64,000 bases of DNA from a virus (Duplodnaviria > Heunggongvirae > Uroviricota > Caudoviricetes). Shown one piece after another: positions 24,102-47,847 of the stretch. Under the pieces are notes generated by a model. That model saw only the letters and a program-made list of their open reading frames with translations, had not been told where the DNA came from and ran no database searches. The stretch lies in the IMG/VR virus record IMGVR_UViG_3300031993_000051; one strand, written 5' to 3'. A program made the position numbers and the translations under genes. The stretch's first letter is position 1. The number at the start of each line of letters is the position of its first letter.

Positions 24102-25388
24102 ATGAATTTAAATGAAGCAAGAGATATTCTCGGTAAATGTGGATATTCATTTTTGAAGGAATCTACAGAATTAACCAGAGATATTATGCTTAAATATGCT
24201 AAGCAATTAGCACAGCAAAATGATAAAATTGGTATTATCAAAGGAAAAAATCCGGAAGATGGCGATTTTGATATAATCATTTATTATAATAATGATAAGA
24301 TTAAAGTCGCATCATATAAGGGTTATGAAAATGAATTTTATGTAAGGGAATTTAAGAGTTCTTTATCTGGAATGCCAATAAAGAAAGTTGAAACCTTAGA
24401 AGAATTACGTTCATATATTGGTTCTACATTGAAATATATGGAAAAATATAAAGAAGACAACAATAATCAATACAAGACAAGTGTCGAAGATATTGAAAAA
24501 GATAAGGAAGAATGGGCTAACAACATGGATCAAAACGAATCATTAAAACTTAAAAAGGCATTACAGTTCCTTGCTGAATGCGGTTATACAATCAGTAAAG
24601 ATACAAGAATTGACGAAATGTCCCGTGCATCTGACCGTGTTCTTGGTCATGATTCTGCAGAAAACTTGCTTTATATGCTTGCTGACTGGAAGAAACAGTA
24701 TGACAGAACTGGTAAGAATGCTACATTAGGTCAATTTGCCAAATTTGTTCAAGATAATGGCATTAGTTGGGACTTAATTAGTGGTCTCAGCTTACCAGGA
24801 TTACCAAGAACAGAACCTCCTACACGTTCATCTAGGAGAATTGATTTGGAAGCTATTATTGCTTCTTTACAAGGTCAGCTTGGACAAGATGTTAGCGATG
24901 TTCGTAACCGTGTTGACCGTGGCAAGGATGATTATGATAGATTAATCGACACCTTCTGGGATTATTATGAAAAGAACCGTGATGGTGAAGATGTTTCTGC
25001 ACTTGTTGATTCTGAAAATTTCCAGGCACTCATTAGATTGTTTGCTGAAGAACCAGAAACTGCACAGGAAGTCTTTGGTAGAAACTATGACAAGGCTAAT
25101 AGCAAGTTACAGAGATTTATTAATCCTGATTCCGCAGCTGCTTTGATTGGCGAATTCTGGGATTGGTATTATGCTAAGAAGGCTGGTCGTGACATTGACT
25201 TCGATCCAGAAAAGGCAGAAAAGATTGCAGACTTGCTTGAAACCCCGAATGCTAAGGATGAAATTTTCGGCGGTAACGGTTCTTACTATACTGTTCTTAG
25301 AACAATTAGTAACATTGTTGGTAGACAGCTTGGTCAGAGAGATGCAGACTTCGATTACGATTCTTTGAATGGTGATTTGAGCCTCTAA
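24102..25388 (+). CDS. protein with two SAP/HeH-like motifs
   Basis: MNLNEARDILGKCGYSFL at the N-terminus and a second copy, LKLKKALQFLAECGYTIS, around residue 145. Strong SD AAGGAGA. Confidence 0.5.
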   Translation: MNLNEARDILGKCGYSFLKESTELTRDIMLKYAKQLAQQNDKIGIIKGKNPEDGDFDIIIYYNNDKIKVASYKGYENEFYVREFKSSLSGMPIKKVETLEELRSYIGSTLKYMEKYKEDNNNQYKTSVEDIEKDKEEWANNMDQNESLKLKKALQFLAECGYTISKDTRIDEMSRASDRVLGHDSAENLLYMLADWKKQYDRTGKNATLGQFAKFVQDNGISWDLISGLSLPGLPRTEPPTRSSRRIDLEAIIASLQGQLGQDVSDVRNRVDRGKDDYDRLIDTFWDYYEKNRDGEDVSALVDSENFQALIRLFAEEPETAQEVFGRNYDKANSKLQRFINPDSAAALIGEFWDWYYAKKAGRDIDFDPEKAEKIADLLETPNAKDEIFGGNGSYYTVLRTISNIVGRQLGQRDADFDYDSLNGDLSL

Positions 25389-42411: not shown

Positions 42412-42485
42412 TAAAAACAACTAGAAAAAAATCATACGGGTTGAAAAACCGTATGGTTTTTCTATCTTTAAGCAAAAGGAAGCGA

Positions 42486-42779
42486 ATGTTAGATACTTTA
42501 ATGTTAATCTGTGGTTTTTGTGGAGCTGGTGCTTTTGCAGTTTGTTCATTACCACAAGTTATTAAAGCTTATAAAACTAAGTCGACAGGTGATATAAGTA
42601 TTTTCTTTATTATCTTGTCAATTATCGGTAATTTATGTAGTGCTGCTTATATATTCTATACTAATTATATAAGTGGAATGTGGCAATATCCGCAATATGT
42701 AAATTATACTTTGGCAACTATACTTATATTTATCCTTCTCGGGTTAAAACTAAAATATGATAAGGAAAATAAAAAATGA
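42486..42779 (+). CDS. SemiSWEET / PQ-loop small transporter
   Basis: CSLPQVIKAYKTKSTGDIS, compared with the SemiSWEET pattern SFLPQVLRVVMTKQTRDIS. Three predicted TM helices over about 97 aa. The real start is probably the ATG at 42486 (SD AAGGAAG), not the TTG at 42441 that lies inside the terminator hairpin. Confidence 0.7.
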   Translation: MLDTLMLICGFCGAGAFAVCSLPQVIKAYKTKSTGDISIFFIILSIIGNLCSAAYIFYTNYISGMWQYPQYVNYTLATILIFILLGLKLKYDKENKK

Positions 42780-43435
42780 GTATAATGGATCTTATCGGTG
42801 TTCAAAGAGGAATTGATTTTGAACATAGTTTACCAACTGTAATGCGATATAAACCTGATATAAGAGAAGGTTATGAATATGGCAGTTTTGAACCTAAATA
42901 TGGTCATACGCCAAATTGGCAACCTTTATGTAGTAATTCTTCAGACTTATATAAAGAAATCGTTTTAGCATGTAAGCAAGTTGCAAAAGTTACAGAAATG
43001 AAAAATCCAATAGGTAATGATCCTTTTTGGCATCGTAGTGGACCTGAACGTGCAGGAACGATTGTTTCTAAGATAATACAGCTTTGTAATGATATTGCTA
43101 TTGCTACTCGACAAGGTCAAGGCAATGTTATTGTATTAAATACTAAGATGTATGATTTATTACGTGAGTTAACATTTGGTTTTATGGATTGCCCATTTAT
43201 TTCTGAATCTGCTCCAGGCGTATTAAAGATTGTTGGAAGAGATGCTTTTAAAATGGATTTTGACGATTATTCAAATTATCCAGAAGCTATTATGACATAT
43301 CATTCTAATAATTCGTGTGTATGTGGTGCTATTGCAGCACTTAGTCCTACCGAGACTTATTTTTCAATTAATACTGATATGGAAGGAACAGAGAATTATT
43401 ATAGACTTTTAAGGGTAAAAGATGAATTACAGTAA
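42776..43435 (+). CDS. hypothetical protein, paralog A (flanks nrdG)
   Basis: Related to 43903..44574 (DLIGVQ / DLIKVQ; GNVIVLNTKMYDLLREL / GNYILINNAFKKELEEL; C-terminal YYRLLRV / YYRLIKLV). Confidence 0.4.
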   Translation: MSIMDLIGVQRGIDFEHSLPTVMRYKPDIREGYEYGSFEPKYGHTPNWQPLCSNSSDLYKEIVLACKQVAKVTEMKNPIGNDPFWHRSGPERAGTIVSKIIQLCNDIAIATRQGQGNVIVLNTKMYDLLRELTFGFMDCPFISESAPGVLKIVGRDAFKMDFDDYSNYPEAIMTYHSNNSCVCGAIAALSPTETYFSINTDMEGTENYYRLLRVKDELQ

Positions 43436-43934
43436 AATTGATCCAATGAGTATTGTCGATGGTGACGGTTGTCGAGTAACACTTTTTGTTTCAGGTTGTA
43501 GAAATCATTGTAAAGGGTGTTTTAATCCAGAAACATGGAATTTTGACTATGGTCAACCATATACAGAAATTACAGAAAATGAAATTATTGAAGCCTGTAA
43601 GAAATCATATATTGCTGGGTTAACTGTTCTTGGTGGAGAACCAATGGAAAAAGAAAACCAAGCAGAAATTTATAAACTCATTACTAATTTCAAACGTGCA
43701 TATCCTGGTAAAAATGTTTGGTTATTTACTGGTTATATTTATGAAAAAGATTTATTAGAAGGTCAGCGTCAAAATATAAATGGGTTAACTTCTTCTTTAT
43801 TAGAAATGGTTGATATTCTGGTTGACGGACCATTTATTCTTGAACAGAGAGATTTGAATTTAAAGTTTAGGGGAAGCACGAATCAAAGGCTATTAACAAG
43901 AGATGAAAGACAAAGGTTACAAAATGACAATTAA
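43422..43934 (+). CDS. nrdG: anaerobic RNR activating enzyme (radical SAM)
   Basis: VTLFVSGCRNHCKGCFNPETW (CxxxCxxC) and GGEP. Confidence 0.8.
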   Translation: MNYSKIDPMSIVDGDGCRVTLFVSGCRNHCKGCFNPETWNFDYGQPYTEITENEIIEACKKSYIAGLTVLGGEPMEKENQAEIYKLITNFKRAYPGKNVWLFTGYIYEKDLLEGQRQNINGLTSSLLEMVDILVDGPFILEQRDLNLKFRGSTNQRLLTRDERQRLQNDN

Positions 43935-44574
43935 AGACTTAATTAAAGTCCAGAAGAAAGACGGATTATTTAAAAACTGTGCATCCGTTTTAAGATATAT
44001 TCCAAGAGAACTATTATTCGATGGTAGAGAAGCTGACCGTCCAGAATTAACATTGGGTCTTGAAAGACAACTTATCCATGAAAAAGATTGGAAAGATGCA
44101 AGTGATGAAAGTAAGAAAGAATTAGATGTAATTCATGCATGTATGGATGTTGCTAATGTTATTGAAATTCACAAAGATCCAGAGTCTACTGCTTCTAAAG
44201 AAGAACGTTGTGGTGTATTGTTGACTAATTTAATGAAGGAATGTAATTCTATTAGAACAAGTACTCGCCGTTGTGCAGGTAATTATATTCTTATTAATAA
44301 TGCATTTAAGAAAGAATTAGAAGAACTTGGTGCATTTTCAACTCCATTTATTAATGTTTCAACTGATAACACTGAATATCTTGTTAATGGTGTTATTAAA
44401 ATGAGTGTTGCTGAGTTTGATGAAGATACACCAATGGCATTAATAGGATATTCTGGAACTAGTAGGTTTGATGGTGGAATCGTTTTAGCAGAAGACGAAG
44501 AAAATAATAAGTATGCGATTGCTGACCGATTCTACGATAGTGATAAGTATTATAGATTAATTAAACTTGTATAG
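43903..44574 (+). CDS. hypothetical protein, paralog B (flanks nrdG)
   Basis: See paralog A. Confidence 0.4.
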   Translation: MKDKGYKMTIKDLIKVQKKDGLFKNCASVLRYIPRELLFDGREADRPELTLGLERQLIHEKDWKDASDESKKELDVIHACMDVANVIEIHKDPESTASKEERCGVLLTNLMKECNSIRTSTRRCAGNYILINNAFKKELEELGAFSTPFINVSTDNTEYLVNGVIKMSVAEFDEDTPMALIGYSGTSRFDGGIVLAEDEENNKYAIADRFYDSDKYYRLIKLV

Positions 44575-44577
44575 AAT

Positions 44578-45507
44578 ATGAGATATATTAAAGGGAGAAG
44601 TAATTTAAGTTGCACAATTTTTGTGCCATGGGATTGTAATAATCATTGCAAGTTCTGTACATCTAAGCAGATGTATAAACAAAGAACTTGTGATATTAAT
44701 GCAATTCTTGCACAAATCAAAAAACTTAATGAAAATCCGTTAATTGAAGAATTTGTATTAACAGGTGGAGAACCATTAGCAGATATTGAGAAATGTCAGA
44801 TTCTTATTGATGCTATGGAGAAACCTGTTTATATCAATACTACATTCCCAACATTTACAGATTTGCCTGGAACAGTAGAAATGTCTAAAGTCAAGACGTT
44901 AATCGATTTCATTAATAATAATGAAAAGATTGGTGGTTTGAATATTTCCAGACATATGCATCAACAGTTTTATGAACCAGTTTTGCCAGTAGATATGTTT
45001 GCACATTTAATTAAGAAACATATTAAATTAAATGTAGTTCTTTCTAAGGAGTTTGATATAAACGAATTTAAAACGTTTATAGAACCATATAAAGAATTAG
45101 AAAATATATCTATTTGTATTAGAGCAGATTATCGGAATATTACTAAAGATAACTTAAAGAATCGTGATGATGTATTTGAAAAGTTAATTTTGGAATATGA
45201 ATATGAAAGTTCTGGTGGATGTATGGTCTGTAATGACGACAGATTCTGGAATAATAATTTATTAATTAGTTATCATCGTGGAATGGAACATTCTAAAGTA
45301 GTTTATGGTAATAAGATATTTGTAAATGATATTTTGATTACTATTGACGGTCAAGTTTATGATGACTGGGATTTAGTAACAAATACAGAATTTGAAAGAT
45401 GGGTATTTGGTGAATATTCATTGACAGATGATATATCTGAATATGAAAATGATCCAGTATATGTTGATTGGTTATTGAAAAAGAATGGTGAAGAAGGTAT
45501 ATTATGA
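44578..45507 (+). CDS. second radical-SAM enzyme, glycyl-radical-activase-like
   Basis: CTIFVPWDCNNHCKFCTS (CxxxCxxC directly followed by Cys-x-x, as in PflA/NrdG activases) and LTGGEPL. An extra CMVC pair near the C-terminus. Confidence 0.65.
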   Translation: MRYIKGRSNLSCTIFVPWDCNNHCKFCTSKQMYKQRTCDINAILAQIKKLNENPLIEEFVLTGGEPLADIEKCQILIDAMEKPVYINTTFPTFTDLPGTVEMSKVKTLIDFINNNEKIGGLNISRHMHQQFYEPVLPVDMFAHLIKKHIKLNVVLSKEFDINEFKTFIEPYKELENISICIRADYRNITKDNLKNRDDVFEKLILEYEYESSGGCMVCNDDRFWNNNLLISYHRGMEHSKVVYGNKIFVNDILITIDGQVYDDWDLVTNTEFERWVFGEYSLTDDISEYENDPVYVDWLLKKNGEEGIL

Positions 45508-45704
45508 CATTAACTGAATTAAGACAAAAACTTAAAACCGCAGGTATGAAACAACTTAAAATTACAGGTTGCGGTGGATATGTAGGATGTGGAACTGGTG
45601 GTTATTATGACTATGCCAATGCACATTTTGGAAATCCTCCACAATGGGTATCGTATAGTTGCGGATTTTATATGAGATGTGGTGGTCCTACTACATGTGG
45701 TTAA
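45504..45704 (+). CDS. 66-aa Cys/Gly/Tyr-rich peptide translationally coupled to the radical-SAM gene
   Basis: ATGA overlap with the upstream stop. Degenerate SAP-like N-terminus (MTLTELRQKLKTAGMKQL), then ITGCGGYVGCGTGGYYDY...YSCGFYMRCGGPTTCG (5 Cys, 11 Gly). Confidence 0.4.
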   Translation: MTLTELRQKLKTAGMKQLKITGCGGYVGCGTGGYYDYANAHFGNPPQWVSYSCGFYMRCGGPTTCG

Positions 45705-45710
45705 AAAGAA

Positions 45711-45738
45711 AGAGTCAAGAAAACCTTGACTCTTTTTA
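45711..45738. terminator. bidirectional intrinsic terminator
   Basis: agagtcaag-aaaac-cttgactct followed by TTTTT, between convergent genes. Confidence 0.6.
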
Positions 45739-45744
45739 TATTAT

Positions 45745-46356
45745 TTAAATTGATGGTTTAACATGTGTTATAGGCAGTCTAAGTAATTTATCTGGAAGTA
45801 TATTTAATTTTGAAAGTAATGTATATGCGACTTCACGACTAATACCAGATTCATATAAAGTTTCAATTATTTCAACTGTTCTTATCTCGCTAGTTTTTAT
45901 TTTACGTGCAAGTTTATAAATTTTAGTGAATTTAGAATAGTCATTACTTTCATTTATATTAATTATAATTTTGCCAGTTTTAGGATTTTTATATTCTGCA
46001 CAACCATAATATGAATTATATCCAGTAAATTCATATCTTTTATTTTTGACAATAATAGTTGCTGGTGTTTCATCTTCATCATCGTCATAATAATAACTGC
46101 CACAACCGCTACTATGACAACTAGAAACATATCCGCAACCTACTCTGACACTTCTGGATATTGTACCACATCCACCACCATAACTACTGCTACTACCACA
46201 TCCAGAACTATAGCTGGAACCGCAACCACTGCTGCCGCACCCAGAACTATAACTGCTGCTTCCGCTACAACCACCACTATAACTACCGCATTCATTAAGC
46301 CTACGAACAGTGTAGCCTTTATTTTTAAGTAATTCTCTTGCTTCTAATAAATTCAT
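45745..46356 (-). CDS. SAP-like motif protein with Cys/Gly/Ser/Tyr low-complexity repeat region
   Basis: MNLLEARELLKNKGYTV at the N-terminus. Then about 75 aa of (S)SGCGSS(Y) repeats, an acidic DDDEDE stretch, and a ~100-aa C-terminal domain. Confidence 0.5.
   Translation of the reverse strand: MNLLEARELLKNKGYTVRRLNECGSYSGGCSGSSSYSSGCGSSGCGSSYSSGCGSSSSYGGGCGTISRSVRVGCGYVSSCHSSGCGSYYYDDDEDETPATIIVKNKRYEFTGYNSYYGCAEYKNPKTGKIIININESNDYSKFTKIYKLARKIKTSEIRTVEIIETLYESGISREVAYTLLSKLNILPDKLLRLPITHVKPSI
46140..46325. repeat. imperfect short tandem DNA repeats (ccacaacc / gctactacc / agaactata units) encoding the CGS-rich segment
   Basis: Visible direct repeats on the + strand inside the 45745..46356 CDS. 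Confidence 0.45.
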
Positions 46357-46370
46357 AAATGCCCCTTACA

Positions 46371-46745
46371 TTAGAACAACCAGTCTAATTCTATCATTAC
46401 TCCCCATTTACAATATCTAATAGTTACATCAAAGCCTCGTTCTTTTGCAAGTTTAAAGTATTTTTTAAATATTGTAGGATTATCTTCGTATTCTTTATCA
46501 TGTACTATAATACCTGTACTACCTTCTTCATATTTAGCATGACCATATTTAACATTTGATAATATAGCATCAAGGCCAACAAGTTTTGATTCTTCTGCAG
46601 TAAGTTCATTTTTTATTGCAGTAAATTCATCAAACAGTAATTTTTGTTTGTCAGAATCTAATTTTATTGGGGCTTCTTCAAGTTCTTCTTTAATAATAGC
46701 ATAGCCATTATCTTTAAGTAATTCTGTTGCTTCTTGTAAGTTCAT
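46371..46745 (-). CDS. small SAP-like motif protein
   Basis: N-terminus MNLQEATELLKDNGYAII. Confidence 0.5.
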   Translation of the reverse strand: MNLQEATELLKDNGYAIIKEELEEAPIKLDSDKQKLLFDEFTAIKNELTAEESKLVGLDAILSNVKYGHAKYEEGSTGIIVHDKEYEDNPTIFKKYFKLAKERGFDVTIRYCKWGVMIELDWLF

Positions 46746-46758
46746 TTTAAATCCTTTA

Positions 46759-47193
46759 TTAAAAATTATTTAAAAATGCATGCATTATTGCACCTTTTTG
46801 GTAAATAGCATTACATTCTTCATAAACTGCTTTTTTGCTTTTTAGTTTCTTAAAGTCTTCTTCAGTTAATGGATTAGGATCTTCAGATTTCCAACCTAAT
46901 TCCCATGCTTCCTGTAGGTCTTTTTTAGGGGTATCATAGTCTTTGCAATAACGTTTTAAAACAATTTCACCAATATCTTTACCGGTATCGTTCAATTCTT
47001 TTTCAGAGAGAATGGTATTTTGATAGCCTATTTGGACGGTATTCTGTGCCCAAGAAGAATTTATAAGTTTAGAACGATATGCTAGATAATCATCGGCACT
47101 ATTAAAACGTATTTCAGATTCATTCATTACAGGTTTATCTATAACCTTGTAATGATTTTCTTTTAATATAGATATAGCTTCTTTTAAGTTCAT
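46759..47193 (-). CDS. small SAP-like motif protein
   Basis: N-terminus MNLKEAISILKENHYKVI. Confidence 0.5.
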   Translation of the reverse strand: MNLKEAISILKENHYKVIDKPVMNESEIRFNSADDYLAYRSKLINSSWAQNTVQIGYQNTILSEKELNDTGKDIGEIVLKRYCKDYDTPKKDLQEAWELGWKSEDPNPLTEEDFKKLKSKKAVYEECNAIYQKGAIMHAFLNNF

Positions 47194-47211: not shown

Positions 47212-47847
47212 TTAGAGTTCTTCGTTAATTCTATCAGCAGCATCTTGTGGAGCAATAAGACCTTGATTATAAAGGTCAGCAGCAATTTGCTTTGCCCTTG
47301 GTAAATCTTCATCATCGAGCATACCACCATCTTCCTGAGCTAAAGATAGAGCCTTAGCAATATAGTCTTCTTCAGCATTTGGAACTATAGTTTCGATTTC
47401 ATCATCGTCAATCGGTGCAAATTCCATTTCATCAAAGAAAAGTTCAATCTTACGGCCAGGTTTCTTTTCTTCTCTGACATAACCAAGTTCCTTAAGAACT
47501 TCAGACCATTGTGTATTTTTGTATGTTCTTAGGCGAGACTTTACAAAAGCAATTTCACGTGGAGTCAAAACTTCACCATTCTGAACTTTTTCTGCTAATG
47601 GAGAAAGATAAGCAGCATCAGTTTGGTTAAAACCCCTATAATTACGTAAAACGGTACGTCTACCTTGCTTTTCGAAATCTACCTGACGTCCATACATACC
47701 AATGAGAAGAACAATAACGAACTTATCATTTTCCAAATATTCCTTAATTCGCTGATTAAGCTGGAAATTTGATGTATAAACATCTTCCTTTATGATTTTA
47801 TAACCGTGTTCTTTAATAACTTTAATAGCTTCTGCCATTTTTTTCAT
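47212..47847 (-). CDS. SAP-like motif protein (two copies)
   Basis: N-terminus MAEAIKVIKEHGYKII and an internal copy WSEVLKELGYV. Acidic C-terminus. Confidence 0.5.
   Translation of the reverse strand: MKKMAEAIKVIKEHGYKIIKEDVYTSNFQLNQRIKEYLENDKFVIVLLIGMYGRQVDFEKQGRRTVLRNYRGFNQTDAAYLSPLAEKVQNGEVLTPREIAFVKSRLRTYKNTQWSEVLKELGYVREEKKPGRKIELFFDEMEFAPIDDDEIETIVPNAEEDYIAKALSLAQEDGGMLDDEDLPRAKQIAADLYNQGLIAPQDAADRINEEL

Follow-up and report, generated by a model that had tools for sequence, protein, structure and literature searches.

What does a phage do with a radical-SAM enzyme that is neither the activase of its own ribonucleotide reductase nor a member of any curated family, and why should the gene of this enzyme overlap that of a tiny peptide rich in cysteine, glycine and tyrosine? 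The question arises from a jumbo gut/rumen phage (Caudoviricetes, IMG/VR record IMGVR_UViG_3300031993_000051), of which we analysed a stretch of 64,000 nucleotides, named here the window. The original prediction, made from sequence alone, proposed that an activase-like radical-SAM gene lying downstream of the canonical nrdG was coupled to a 66-aa peptide and faced a convergent gene with Cys/Gly/Ser repeats. It saw in this arrangement a maturase and its precursor, as in SCIFF, ranthipeptide or sactipeptide-like systems, or alternatively a small glycyl-radical spare part with a dedicated activase. The observation holds in every feature. Its interpretation is only partly supported: the enzyme and the peptide do form a pair of the maturase-plus-precursor type, with the repeat as the inferred substrate, but membership of the systems just named, and the glycyl-radical alternative, are not supported. 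What we find instead points to a new, mostly phage-borne family, where the Cys-Gly repeat that is a separate gene in this phage is fused to the tail of the enzyme itself in most relatives.

Organization of the locus

The enzyme is encoded at 44578-45507 (+) and comprises 309 residues. It displays a CX3CX2C cluster motif, CNNHCKFC (C20/C24/C27, nt 44635-44658), and a GGEP motif (residues 63-66, nt 44764-44775). After the barrel comes a beta-hairpin with C215-x2-C218 (nt 45220-45231) and H233 (nt 45274-45276), while residues ~265-309 form a clade-specific C-terminal extension. The canonical nrdG is located at 43422-43934 and scores 171 bits against a cut-off of 126. The second enzyme starts 644 nt after its stop, a gap filled by a 223-aa ORF. 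The stop codon TGA of the enzyme gene (45505-45507) overlaps, within ATGA, the ATG at 45504 of the 66-aa ORF (45504-45704, +). Residues 1-22 of this peptide make an N-terminal helical part (MTLTELRQKLKTAGMKQLKITG), and residues 23-66 a core rich in Tyr and Gly, with five Cys-Gly units, ending in TTCG. A bidirectional hairpin with a 13-bp stem follows at 45707-45737, scored as terminator-like on both strands; it lies between the convergent genes and ends the co-directional run going from nrdD through nrdG to the radical-SAM enzyme and its peptide. Beyond it, a convergent ORF (45745-46356, -) codes for a 203-aa protein, with an N-terminal module MNLLEARELLKNKGYTVRRLNECG, a disordered Cys/Gly/Ser/Tyr-rich region (residues 21-93, nt 46078-46296) with about nine Cys-Gly units, an acidic stretch, and a folded C-terminal domain (residues 100-203) that we could not relate to a known fold. 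This protein is a plausible second target of the enzyme.

Chance does not account for this arrangement. These are the only two Cys-Gly-rich ORFs among the 281 ORFs of at least 40 aa in the window. The 66-aa ORF is under coding selection: among its seven alleles, one pair differs by 15 synonymous and 2 non-synonymous codons, all Cys-Gly units are invariant while the flanks vary, and one allele has an in-frame 3-nt deletion. Gene callers of independent assemblies also call this gene. Furthermore, no DNA-level tandem repeat underlies the Cys/Gly/Ser region, which is therefore not a slippage artefact.

An enzyme outside the curated families

The protein has the cluster motif, the GGE-type SAM-binding motif and the partial TIM-barrel core of the radical-SAM superfamily, but it fits no curated family within it. 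One of the checks set beforehand was whether it would prove to be a mere duplicate of NrdG. It does share with the activases a CX3CX2C motif near the N-terminus, a Pfam Fer4_12 match and weak N-terminal similarity to the NrdG type. However, activase models score far below their curated cut-offs (NrdG2 33.3 bits against 131, NrdG 22.2 against 126), and there is no hit to PFLA or PFLE_PFLC. Likewise, the enzyme gives no SPASM or Fer4_14 Pfam hit at E<=1, rSAM_PapB reaches only E 0.38, and the SCIFF maturase model returns no hit. Only C215, C218 and H233 are invariant after the core, although a reduced twitch-like site cannot be excluded. No PqqD or RRE Pfam hit was found in the enzyme or its neighbours, at the level of HMM comparison only; a divergent docking element in the C-terminal extension is possible. 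The MoaA model TIGR02666 scores 22.9 bits against a cut-off of 284, and the position of the third ligand in the auxiliary-cluster motif of MoaA (Cx2Cx13C) appears, judging from sequence without a structural alignment, to be held by His rather than Cys; there is also no link to molybdenum-cofactor genes. The small non-SPASM peptide enzymes YydG/EpeE (an epimerase) and HxsC, of the His-Xaa-Ser repeat system, again score far below cut-offs; the partner motif differs (Cys-Gly, not His-x-Ser), and no hxsB or hxsD gene is present.

The predicted fold tells a different story from that of an activase, being closest to MoaA and to SPASM/twitch peptide maturases. Its nearest neighbours are MoaA (the second-best structural match) and peptide-modifying radical-SAM enzymes, ChlB, SuiB, SkfB, EpeE, PqqE, anSME and CteB, whereas PflA comes only thirteenth. 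By sequence the enzyme is nearest to MoaA, the best neighbour, and to YydG/EpeE. A comparison with the BFVD library of viral structures retrieved only generic viral radical-SAM proteins, with TM about 0.6 or lower. No PADLOC defence model matched, beyond a weak generic viperin-core hit.

A conserved partnership, split or fused

A megablast search with the 4.5-kb locus gave no hit in 50,697 phage records, and tblastn with the enzyme found there only two unannotated gut-phage contigs, at about 31% identity. The statement of the original prediction that neither arrangement is a known feature of T4-like phages thus holds as far as we could test. Of 75 distinct relatives on phage or metagenome contigs, 62 have a Cys-Gly-repeat partner within 1.5 kb or fused (53 separate and 9 fused), and analogous peptides lie directly downstream of homologous enzymes. 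The pairing is conserved down to about 38% enzyme identity. We counted 64 Cys-Gly-rich ORFs within 1.5 kb of the enzyme genes (176.7 kb in total), and none in 201.6 kb of farther flanks. Thirteen of the 75 enzymes have no detectable partner, but four of these lack enough downstream sequence. By contrast, no Cys-Gly partner or conserved neighbour was found in the bacterial sister clade, a chromosomal group about 30% identical, present in Oscillospiraceae, Acidaminococcus and Megasphaera.

In most of the family the two partners are a single polypeptide. In a search of 1.84 billion proteins, 83 of 120 full-length representatives at 50% identity (69%) carry the repeat as their own C-terminal tail, after a low-complexity linker, and 66 of those 83 (80%) end exactly in Cys. 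The motif itself is under selection: in 42 non-redundant partners, 85% of non-terminal Cys are followed by Gly, against 27 +/- 2.5% in shuffled sequences. Repeat number varies from 2 to about 10. The system has the features of a generic RiPP-like enzyme/precursor pair, namely a short precursor gene conserved next to the modifying enzyme, with a conserved target motif and a variable core, but lacks genes for leader removal and export. Several putative targets may coexist, two in the present locus, and two or three in related loci (L121-L124), of 65 and 102 aa, plus a weaker-scoring 122-aa ORF. A weak trend further hints at docking, as enzymes with longer C-terminal extensions tend to pair with peptides having longer N-terminal parts, while leaderless peptides pair only with the shortest enzymes (rho 0.45, p 0.03).

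A proposed function

We favour, with moderate confidence, the view that the 309-aa protein belongs to an undescribed radical-SAM family, found mainly on phage contigs from anaerobic gut, rumen and digester samples, whose substrate would be a disordered repeat of (G/S)-(G/S)-Cys-Gly units, usually ending in a C-terminal Cys. In most members the enzyme would then be self-modifying; in this jumbo phage the repeat would have been split off as a translationally coupled peptide, with a second copy embedded in the convergent protein. In the mechanism that we infer, the N-terminal [4Fe-4S] cluster cleaves SAM, and the 5'-deoxyadenosyl radical abstracts a hydrogen atom from each Cys-Gly unit, most likely at the Gly C-alpha. 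The radical would be resolved by formation of a C-S bond with a Cys thiolate, giving a sactionine-type thioether, possibly assisted by a second metal site at the C215-x2-C218...H233 hairpin. This thioether is no more than our leading guess, no modification having been observed. The product probably acts inside the infected cell, because no protease or exporter gene accompanies the pair, in the window or in the related loci examined. What the analysis establishes is the enzyme class, the repeat motif, the conserved adjacency and the fusion, whereas the role of the repeat as substrate, the site of hydrogen abstraction, the type of modification and the biological function are all inferred.

There are precedents for this view. 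Three Cys-to-Gly sactionines are made by StsB in StsA (PMC10288494), and enteropeptins contain a thiomorpholine made from a cysteine and an N-methylornithine residue (PMC12395415). Yet, in contrast to the sactipeptide and ranthipeptide maturases (CteB, SkfB, PapB, StsB), the present enzyme matches no SPASM, RRE or family model, its presumed substrate is mostly fused to it, the unit is a strict Cys-Gly repeat with a C-terminal Cys, and the system is phage-borne, without protease or exporter. Characterised thioether-forming radical-SAM enzymes use SPASM or twitch-type auxiliary clusters, while here only two Cys and one His are invariant after the barrel, and C218 is not conserved in the bacterial sister clade; this weighs against our proposal, as do the lack of a detected RRE and the lack of a partner in 13 of the 75 enzymes and in the bacterial sister clade. 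The architecture matches that of borosins, where the enzyme carries its own repetitive core at the C-terminus and modifies itself (OphMA type), split variants have separate precursors (SonM/SonA type), and some precursors are large, with the core embedded mid-protein (bioRxiv 10.1101/2021.12.24.474128). However, the borosin enzymes are SAM methyltransferases, with unrelated chemistry and no relationship in sequence or fold.

Other explanations must be considered. A Cys-rich tail could be a working part of the enzyme rather than its substrate, inserting its terminal Cys and carboxylate into the active site to gate radical initiation, donating a hydrogen atom or electrons, or supplying the missing ligand of an auxiliary cluster, while the true substrate would be something else, such as a nucleotide or phage DNA. 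The frequent fusion with an exact C-terminal Cys fits this idea, as do the absence of protease and exporter genes and a post-barrel site that leaves room for an external ligand. MoaA, moreover, uses a disordered C-terminal GG tail that enters its own active site, and that an 11-mer peptide supplied in trans can replace (PMC12625886). We nevertheless find this explanation doubtful. A gating or ligand tail needs a single terminal motif, whereas we see many Cys-Gly units, each keeping Gly after Cys, in numbers that change quickly. Several different partner proteins can sit in one locus, and in the 203-aa protein and in a 220-aa protein the repeat is internal, 60-100 residues from the C-terminus. 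Finally, the MoaA tail is highly conserved in sequence, and these tails are not.

Still less likely, the peptides might be carriers of metal, Fe-S or sulfur, or redox buffers, metallothionein- or scaffold-like, serving the oxygen-sensitive radical enzymes of the phage (NrdD/NrdG and this enzyme), the latter being a merely co-expressed client. Their richness in Cys, the position of the pair at the end of the nrdD-nrdG run and the anaerobic habitat of all sources would agree with this. In other phages, however, the pair is not next to nrdDG, the dominant spacing is C-x4-C with Gly obligatory after Cys, not the CxxC or CxC pattern of metal-binding or Fe-S motifs, and fusion to this particular enzyme family, together with absence elsewhere in the same loci, argues for a specific partnership. 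The glycyl-radical spare part (in the manner of GrcA/YfiD) is very unlikely. It is true that activases also act on a Gly in a peptide loop, that the gene lies near nrdD/nrdG in this window, that Gly is conserved next to every Cys, and that abstraction from a Gly C-alpha is chemically plausible. But, beside the low activase scores and the distant PflA fold, the partners are disordered, repeated and hypervariable, with no RVxG[FYW]-type motif or glycyl-radical domain. The suggested echo between the ITGCGGY segment of the peptide and the NrdD loop RRITGYLTG is not supported either, since homologous partners read NLCGSS, ITACGGGCG, ISMCGGGCG or start directly with MCGYSN.

Implications

Should the repeat be the substrate, this would be a radical-SAM peptide-modifying family outside the SPASM/RRE pattern that genome-mining tools look for, which would explain why it has been missed despite about 200 clusters at 50% identity; literature searches found no description of it. 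As far as we could find, it would be the first radical-SAM family where the enzyme usually carries its own substrate, a ready single-polypeptide system for studying iterative radical chemistry, with a strict Cys-Gly / C-terminal Cys grammar that makes this chemistry directly testable. It would also show that lytic and jumbo phages of gut and rumen anaerobes invest in post-translational peptide chemistry during infection, raising the question of what the product does to the host. More tentatively, we may have here the founding example of a new class of self-modifying radical-SAM proteins, borosin-like in architecture and carried mainly by phages, including jumbo phages, that install, without a SPASM domain, a so far unseen modification on Cys-Gly units and on a C-terminal Cys. 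Vicinal S-C-alpha (thiomorpholinone-type) rings or oxidative decarboxylation of the terminal Cys are candidates. The product would act inside the infected anaerobe, for example as an anti-defence, redox or metal-handling factor.

An N-terminal module shared across the phage

Do the two Cys-Gly proteins of the locus share a leader? By eye, the 66-aa peptide and the 203-aa protein look alike (M-x-L-x-E...K-x-x-G...C-G at position 23). However, an HMM of the N-terminus of the 203-aa family does not hit the 66-aa peptide, while it does hit other proteins of the window without Cys-Gly repeats (46371-46745, 46759-47193, 24102-25388). We therefore treat MNLxEAxxILxxxGY as a general N-terminal module of this phage, not as a maturase-specific leader.

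Organization of the locus

Every element that the original prediction had described is present in the sequence. The ORF of 309 aa at 44578-45507 (+) carries the motif CNNHCKFC (C20/C24/C27) and GGEP (residues 63-66). Its TGA stop (45505-45507) overlaps the ATG (45504) of an ORF of 66 aa (45504-45704), which has five Cys-Gly units, is rich in Tyr and Gly and ends in TTCG. A hairpin with a 13-bp stem follows at 45707-45737, scoring as terminator-like on both strands, and the convergent ORF at 45745-46356 (-) encodes a protein of 203 aa, with residues 21-93 rich in Cys, Gly, Ser and Tyr. The canonical nrdG (43422-43934) passes its NCBIfam model, with 171 bits against a cut-off of 126. The second radical-SAM gene begins 644 nt after it, the gap being filled by an ORF of 223 aa. 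Taken together, nrdD, a PQ-loop protein, an ORF of 219 aa, nrdG, the 223-aa ORF, the radical-SAM enzyme and the peptide form one tight co-directional run that ends at the hairpin. The PQ-loop protein, encoded at 42441-42779 (+), is a SemiSWEET-like membrane protein of 112 aa (Pfam PQ-loop E 3e-13) located between nrdD and the first of two paralogous small ORFs that flank nrdG. These two ORFs, at 42776-43435 (+) and 43903-44574 (+), code for the proteins of 219 and 223 aa, which are 28% identical (E 8e-21). Both weakly match the middle of the T4 Gp23 major capsid protein profile (Pfam E 1e-4 and 3e-6) and are Gp23-fragment-like proteins inside the nrdD-nrdG run. The same locus occurs on metagenomic contigs of 357,983 bp and up to 415,750 bp, so the window comes from a jumbo phage.

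The 66-aa ORF is a real gene. Seven alleles were recovered from related contigs, one of which differs from the window by 15 synonymous and 2 non-synonymous codons. All five Cys-Gly units are invariant, while residues between the third and fifth units vary, and one allele has an in-frame deletion of 3 nt. Independent gene callers also call the ORF. As for the 203-aa gene, its Cys/Gly/Ser region shows no tandem repeat at the DNA level, and in 40 homologues it keeps its reading frame while gaining and losing repeat units.

The radical-SAM enzyme

In the enzyme, Pfam matches only residues 12-86 (Radical_SAM, Fer4_12). No NCBIfam model comes near its cut-off, either for the protein of the window or for any of 36 aligned homologues, the best scores being NrdG2 at 33 bits against 131, HxsC at 25 against 268 and MoaA at 23 against 284. 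No SPASM, twitch or PqqD/RRE match was found. In the alignment of 36 homologues the invariant positions are the cluster cysteines, GGEP, N87-T88, N122/S124-R125-H126, R182/D184, a post-barrel C215-x2-C218, H233-R234-G235 and D263-W264. When folds are compared, the neighbours score as follows: GDGT-MAS 15.1, MoaA 14.9, ChlB 14.2, SuiB 14.1, viperin 13.6, SkfB 13.4, EpeE 12.6, PqqE 12.4, anSME 12.3 and CteB 12.0, with PflA at rank 13 (11.8). A profile search of PDB sequences gives MoaA (E 3.5e-5) and YydG/EpeE (E 8e-5) as the nearest hits. The protein is a radical-SAM enzyme whose core sits with the MoaA and peptide-maturase group rather than with the glycyl-radical activases, and it is a member of none of the curated families.

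Cys-Gly partners of the enzyme

The partner is the key to this system. Relatives with enzymes 69%, 45% and 44% identical each have a different small ORF directly downstream, and each is again a Cys-Gly repeat: YIGCGR repeats ending in SSCG, a GCGG-rich sequence ending in HSGC, and a CGG-rich sequence ending in GGGC. For a wider survey we scanned viral, genome and metagenome collections with the alignment and scored every ORF. Of 75 distinct phage-clade enzymes, 53 have a separate Cys-Gly-rich ORF within 1.5 kb and 9 carry the repeat as their own C-terminus, while 13 have none, 4 of which lack enough downstream sequence. In the same loci there are 64 such ORFs within 1.5 kb of the enzyme gene (176.7 kb in total) and none in 201.6 kb farther away.

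The repeat follows a strict grammar, analysed in 42 non-redundant partners. Of 272 Cys, 77% are followed by Gly and a further 10% are the last residue. Among Cys that have a following residue, 85% are followed by Gly, against 27 +/- 2.5% in shuffles. Position -1 is Gly or Ser in 72% of cases, and a second Cys is most often five residues away. The last residue is Cys in 27 of 42 partners, while 6 of 42 end in Cys-Gly. Around this grammar the partners are diverse. Some are leaderless and start with MCGYSN, others have a helical N-terminus of 20 aa, as here, and still others have an N-terminal part of 50-90 aa (LLFIDSDDIxxLSEALxxALERRG). Some are larger proteins with the repeat in the middle, such as the 203-aa protein here and a 220-aa protein in L016, one of the related loci.

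Fusion is the main architecture. An exhaustive profile search of 1.84 billion representatives found 208 clusters at E<=1e-30. Of 120 full-length representatives, 83 (69%) have a low-complexity linker followed by a C-terminal Cys-Gly repeat, with a median of 3 units, and 66 of the 83 end exactly in Cys, typically as C-G-G-G-(G/S)-C. The split arrangement in this window is therefore the minority form of a family in which enzyme and repeat are normally one polypeptide, and this is strong evidence for a direct physical and functional relationship. By contrast, a sister clade about 30% identical, which comprises loci L045, L049, L082, L093 and L098 and about 480 further genome hits, sits on chromosomes of Oscillospiraceae, Acidaminococcus and Megasphaera, including cultured isolates. 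Its members are 295 aa long, with a conserved C-terminus (HSDWTG...FEPYDL), no Cys-Gly tail, no Cys-Gly neighbour and no conserved neighbours, and they are unnamed by NCBIfam. This clade keeps C215, H233 and D263-W264, but not always C218.

A likely role of the repeat as substrate

With moderate confidence we favour a model where the enzyme modifies, iteratively, Cys-Gly units of its own tail or of a split-off peptide. The analysis establishes the enzyme class, the grammar of the repeat, its adjacency to the enzyme gene and its frequent fusion, whereas the substrate role of the repeat, the chemistry and the biological function are inferred, the function being unproven. Every repeat unit keeps the Cys-Gly grammar, repeat number changes quickly, and one locus can hold two or three different Cys-Gly proteins, some with the repeat far from the C-terminus. 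The fold neighbours are peptide modifiers. Leaderless peptides, further, pair only with the shortest enzymes, while enzymes with longer C-terminal extensions pair with peptides that have longer N-terminal parts, a weak trend (rho 0.45, p 0.03) that is not phylogenetically corrected. The architecture parallels that of borosins, where fused self-modifying and split forms coexist and cores can be embedded in large proteins. As for the chemistry, our leading guess, a tentative one, is abstraction of an H atom from a Gly C-alpha followed by S-C bond formation with a Cys, with precedents in the Cys-to-Gly sactionines of StsA (PMC10288494) and in the six-membered thiomorpholine made from a cysteine and an N-methylornithine residue in enteropeptins (PMC12395415). 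Formylglycine, epimerisation or oxidative decarboxylation of the terminal Cys remain possible, and the chemistry could turn out to be either ordinary or new. The main objection is the lack of a SPASM or twitch auxiliary cluster, although the invariant Cx2C...H hairpin may be a reduced second metal site. No protease or exporter accompanies the pair in any locus examined. We therefore expect an intracellular role during infection, not a secreted bacteriocin.

Other explanations appear less likely. The tail could be a working part of the enzyme: MoaA, the closest relative by sequence, uses a disordered C-terminal GG tail that enters its own active site to trigger SAM cleavage, and a synthetic 11-mer works in trans (PMC12625886). 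The near-universal terminal Cys fits this idea, but the repeats, the multiple partners and the internal repeats do not, and we consider it unlikely. It is still more doubtful that the peptides are carriers of metal, Fe-S or sulfur, because the Cys spacing and the obligatory Gly do not match known binding motifs and the link to nrdDG holds only in this phage. Finally, a glycyl-radical spare part with a dedicated activase is very improbable, as there is no activase membership and no glycyl-radical motif, and the partner is disordered and hypervariable.

The interpretation proposed in the original prediction is supported only in part. Its reading of the pair as a maturase plus its precursor is supported and in fact strengthened. 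By contrast, the activase-type label that it gave to the enzyme rests on a generic N-terminal match, and the echo that it saw between ITGCGGY and the NrdD loop RRITGYLTG is coincidental. Filing the pair under SCIFF, ranthipeptide or sactipeptide systems fails the SPASM, RRE and family-model tests. No curated model names the family, sources call its members only 'radical SAM protein', 'organic radical activating enzyme' or 'hypothetical protein', and full-text literature searches found no description of it. While a radical-SAM enzyme acting on a peptide substrate is a known arrangement, the present case is unusual in that it has no SPASM or RRE, is predominantly self-fused, follows a strict Cys-Gly / C-terminal Cys grammar and is mainly phage-borne.

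A shared N-terminal module and related neighbourhoods

The N-termini of the 66-aa peptide and of the 203-aa protein resemble each other by eye, but this is not supported by an HMM test, and the module MNLxEAxxILxxxGY also heads proteins without Cys-Gly repeats. At least five proteins of this phage, encoded at 45745-46356 (-), 46371-46745 (-), 46759-47193 (-), 47212-47847 (-) and 24102-25388 (+), begin with the same module of about 16 residues, MNLxEAxxILxxxGY(K/T)V, and four of them lie in a row next to the radical-SAM pair. An HMM of the module hits the 124-aa ORF (E 2e-6), the 428-aa ORF (E 6e-5) and the 144-aa ORF (E 0.007). The 211-aa ORF is not hit (E 1.7) and is included only on the hand-built pattern. 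The module could be a shared targeting, processing or docking signal. In related jumbo-phage loci (L009 4520-4918; L017 6900-7811), the enzyme homologue sits directly after a Tad2-like (anti-Thoeris family) gene in L009, while in L017 it lies about 1 kb upstream of an ORF with a CxxxCxxC motif which, judged by eye alone, looks like an RlmN/Cfr-type radical-SAM enzyme. These are neighbourhoods of the accessory or anti-defence type.
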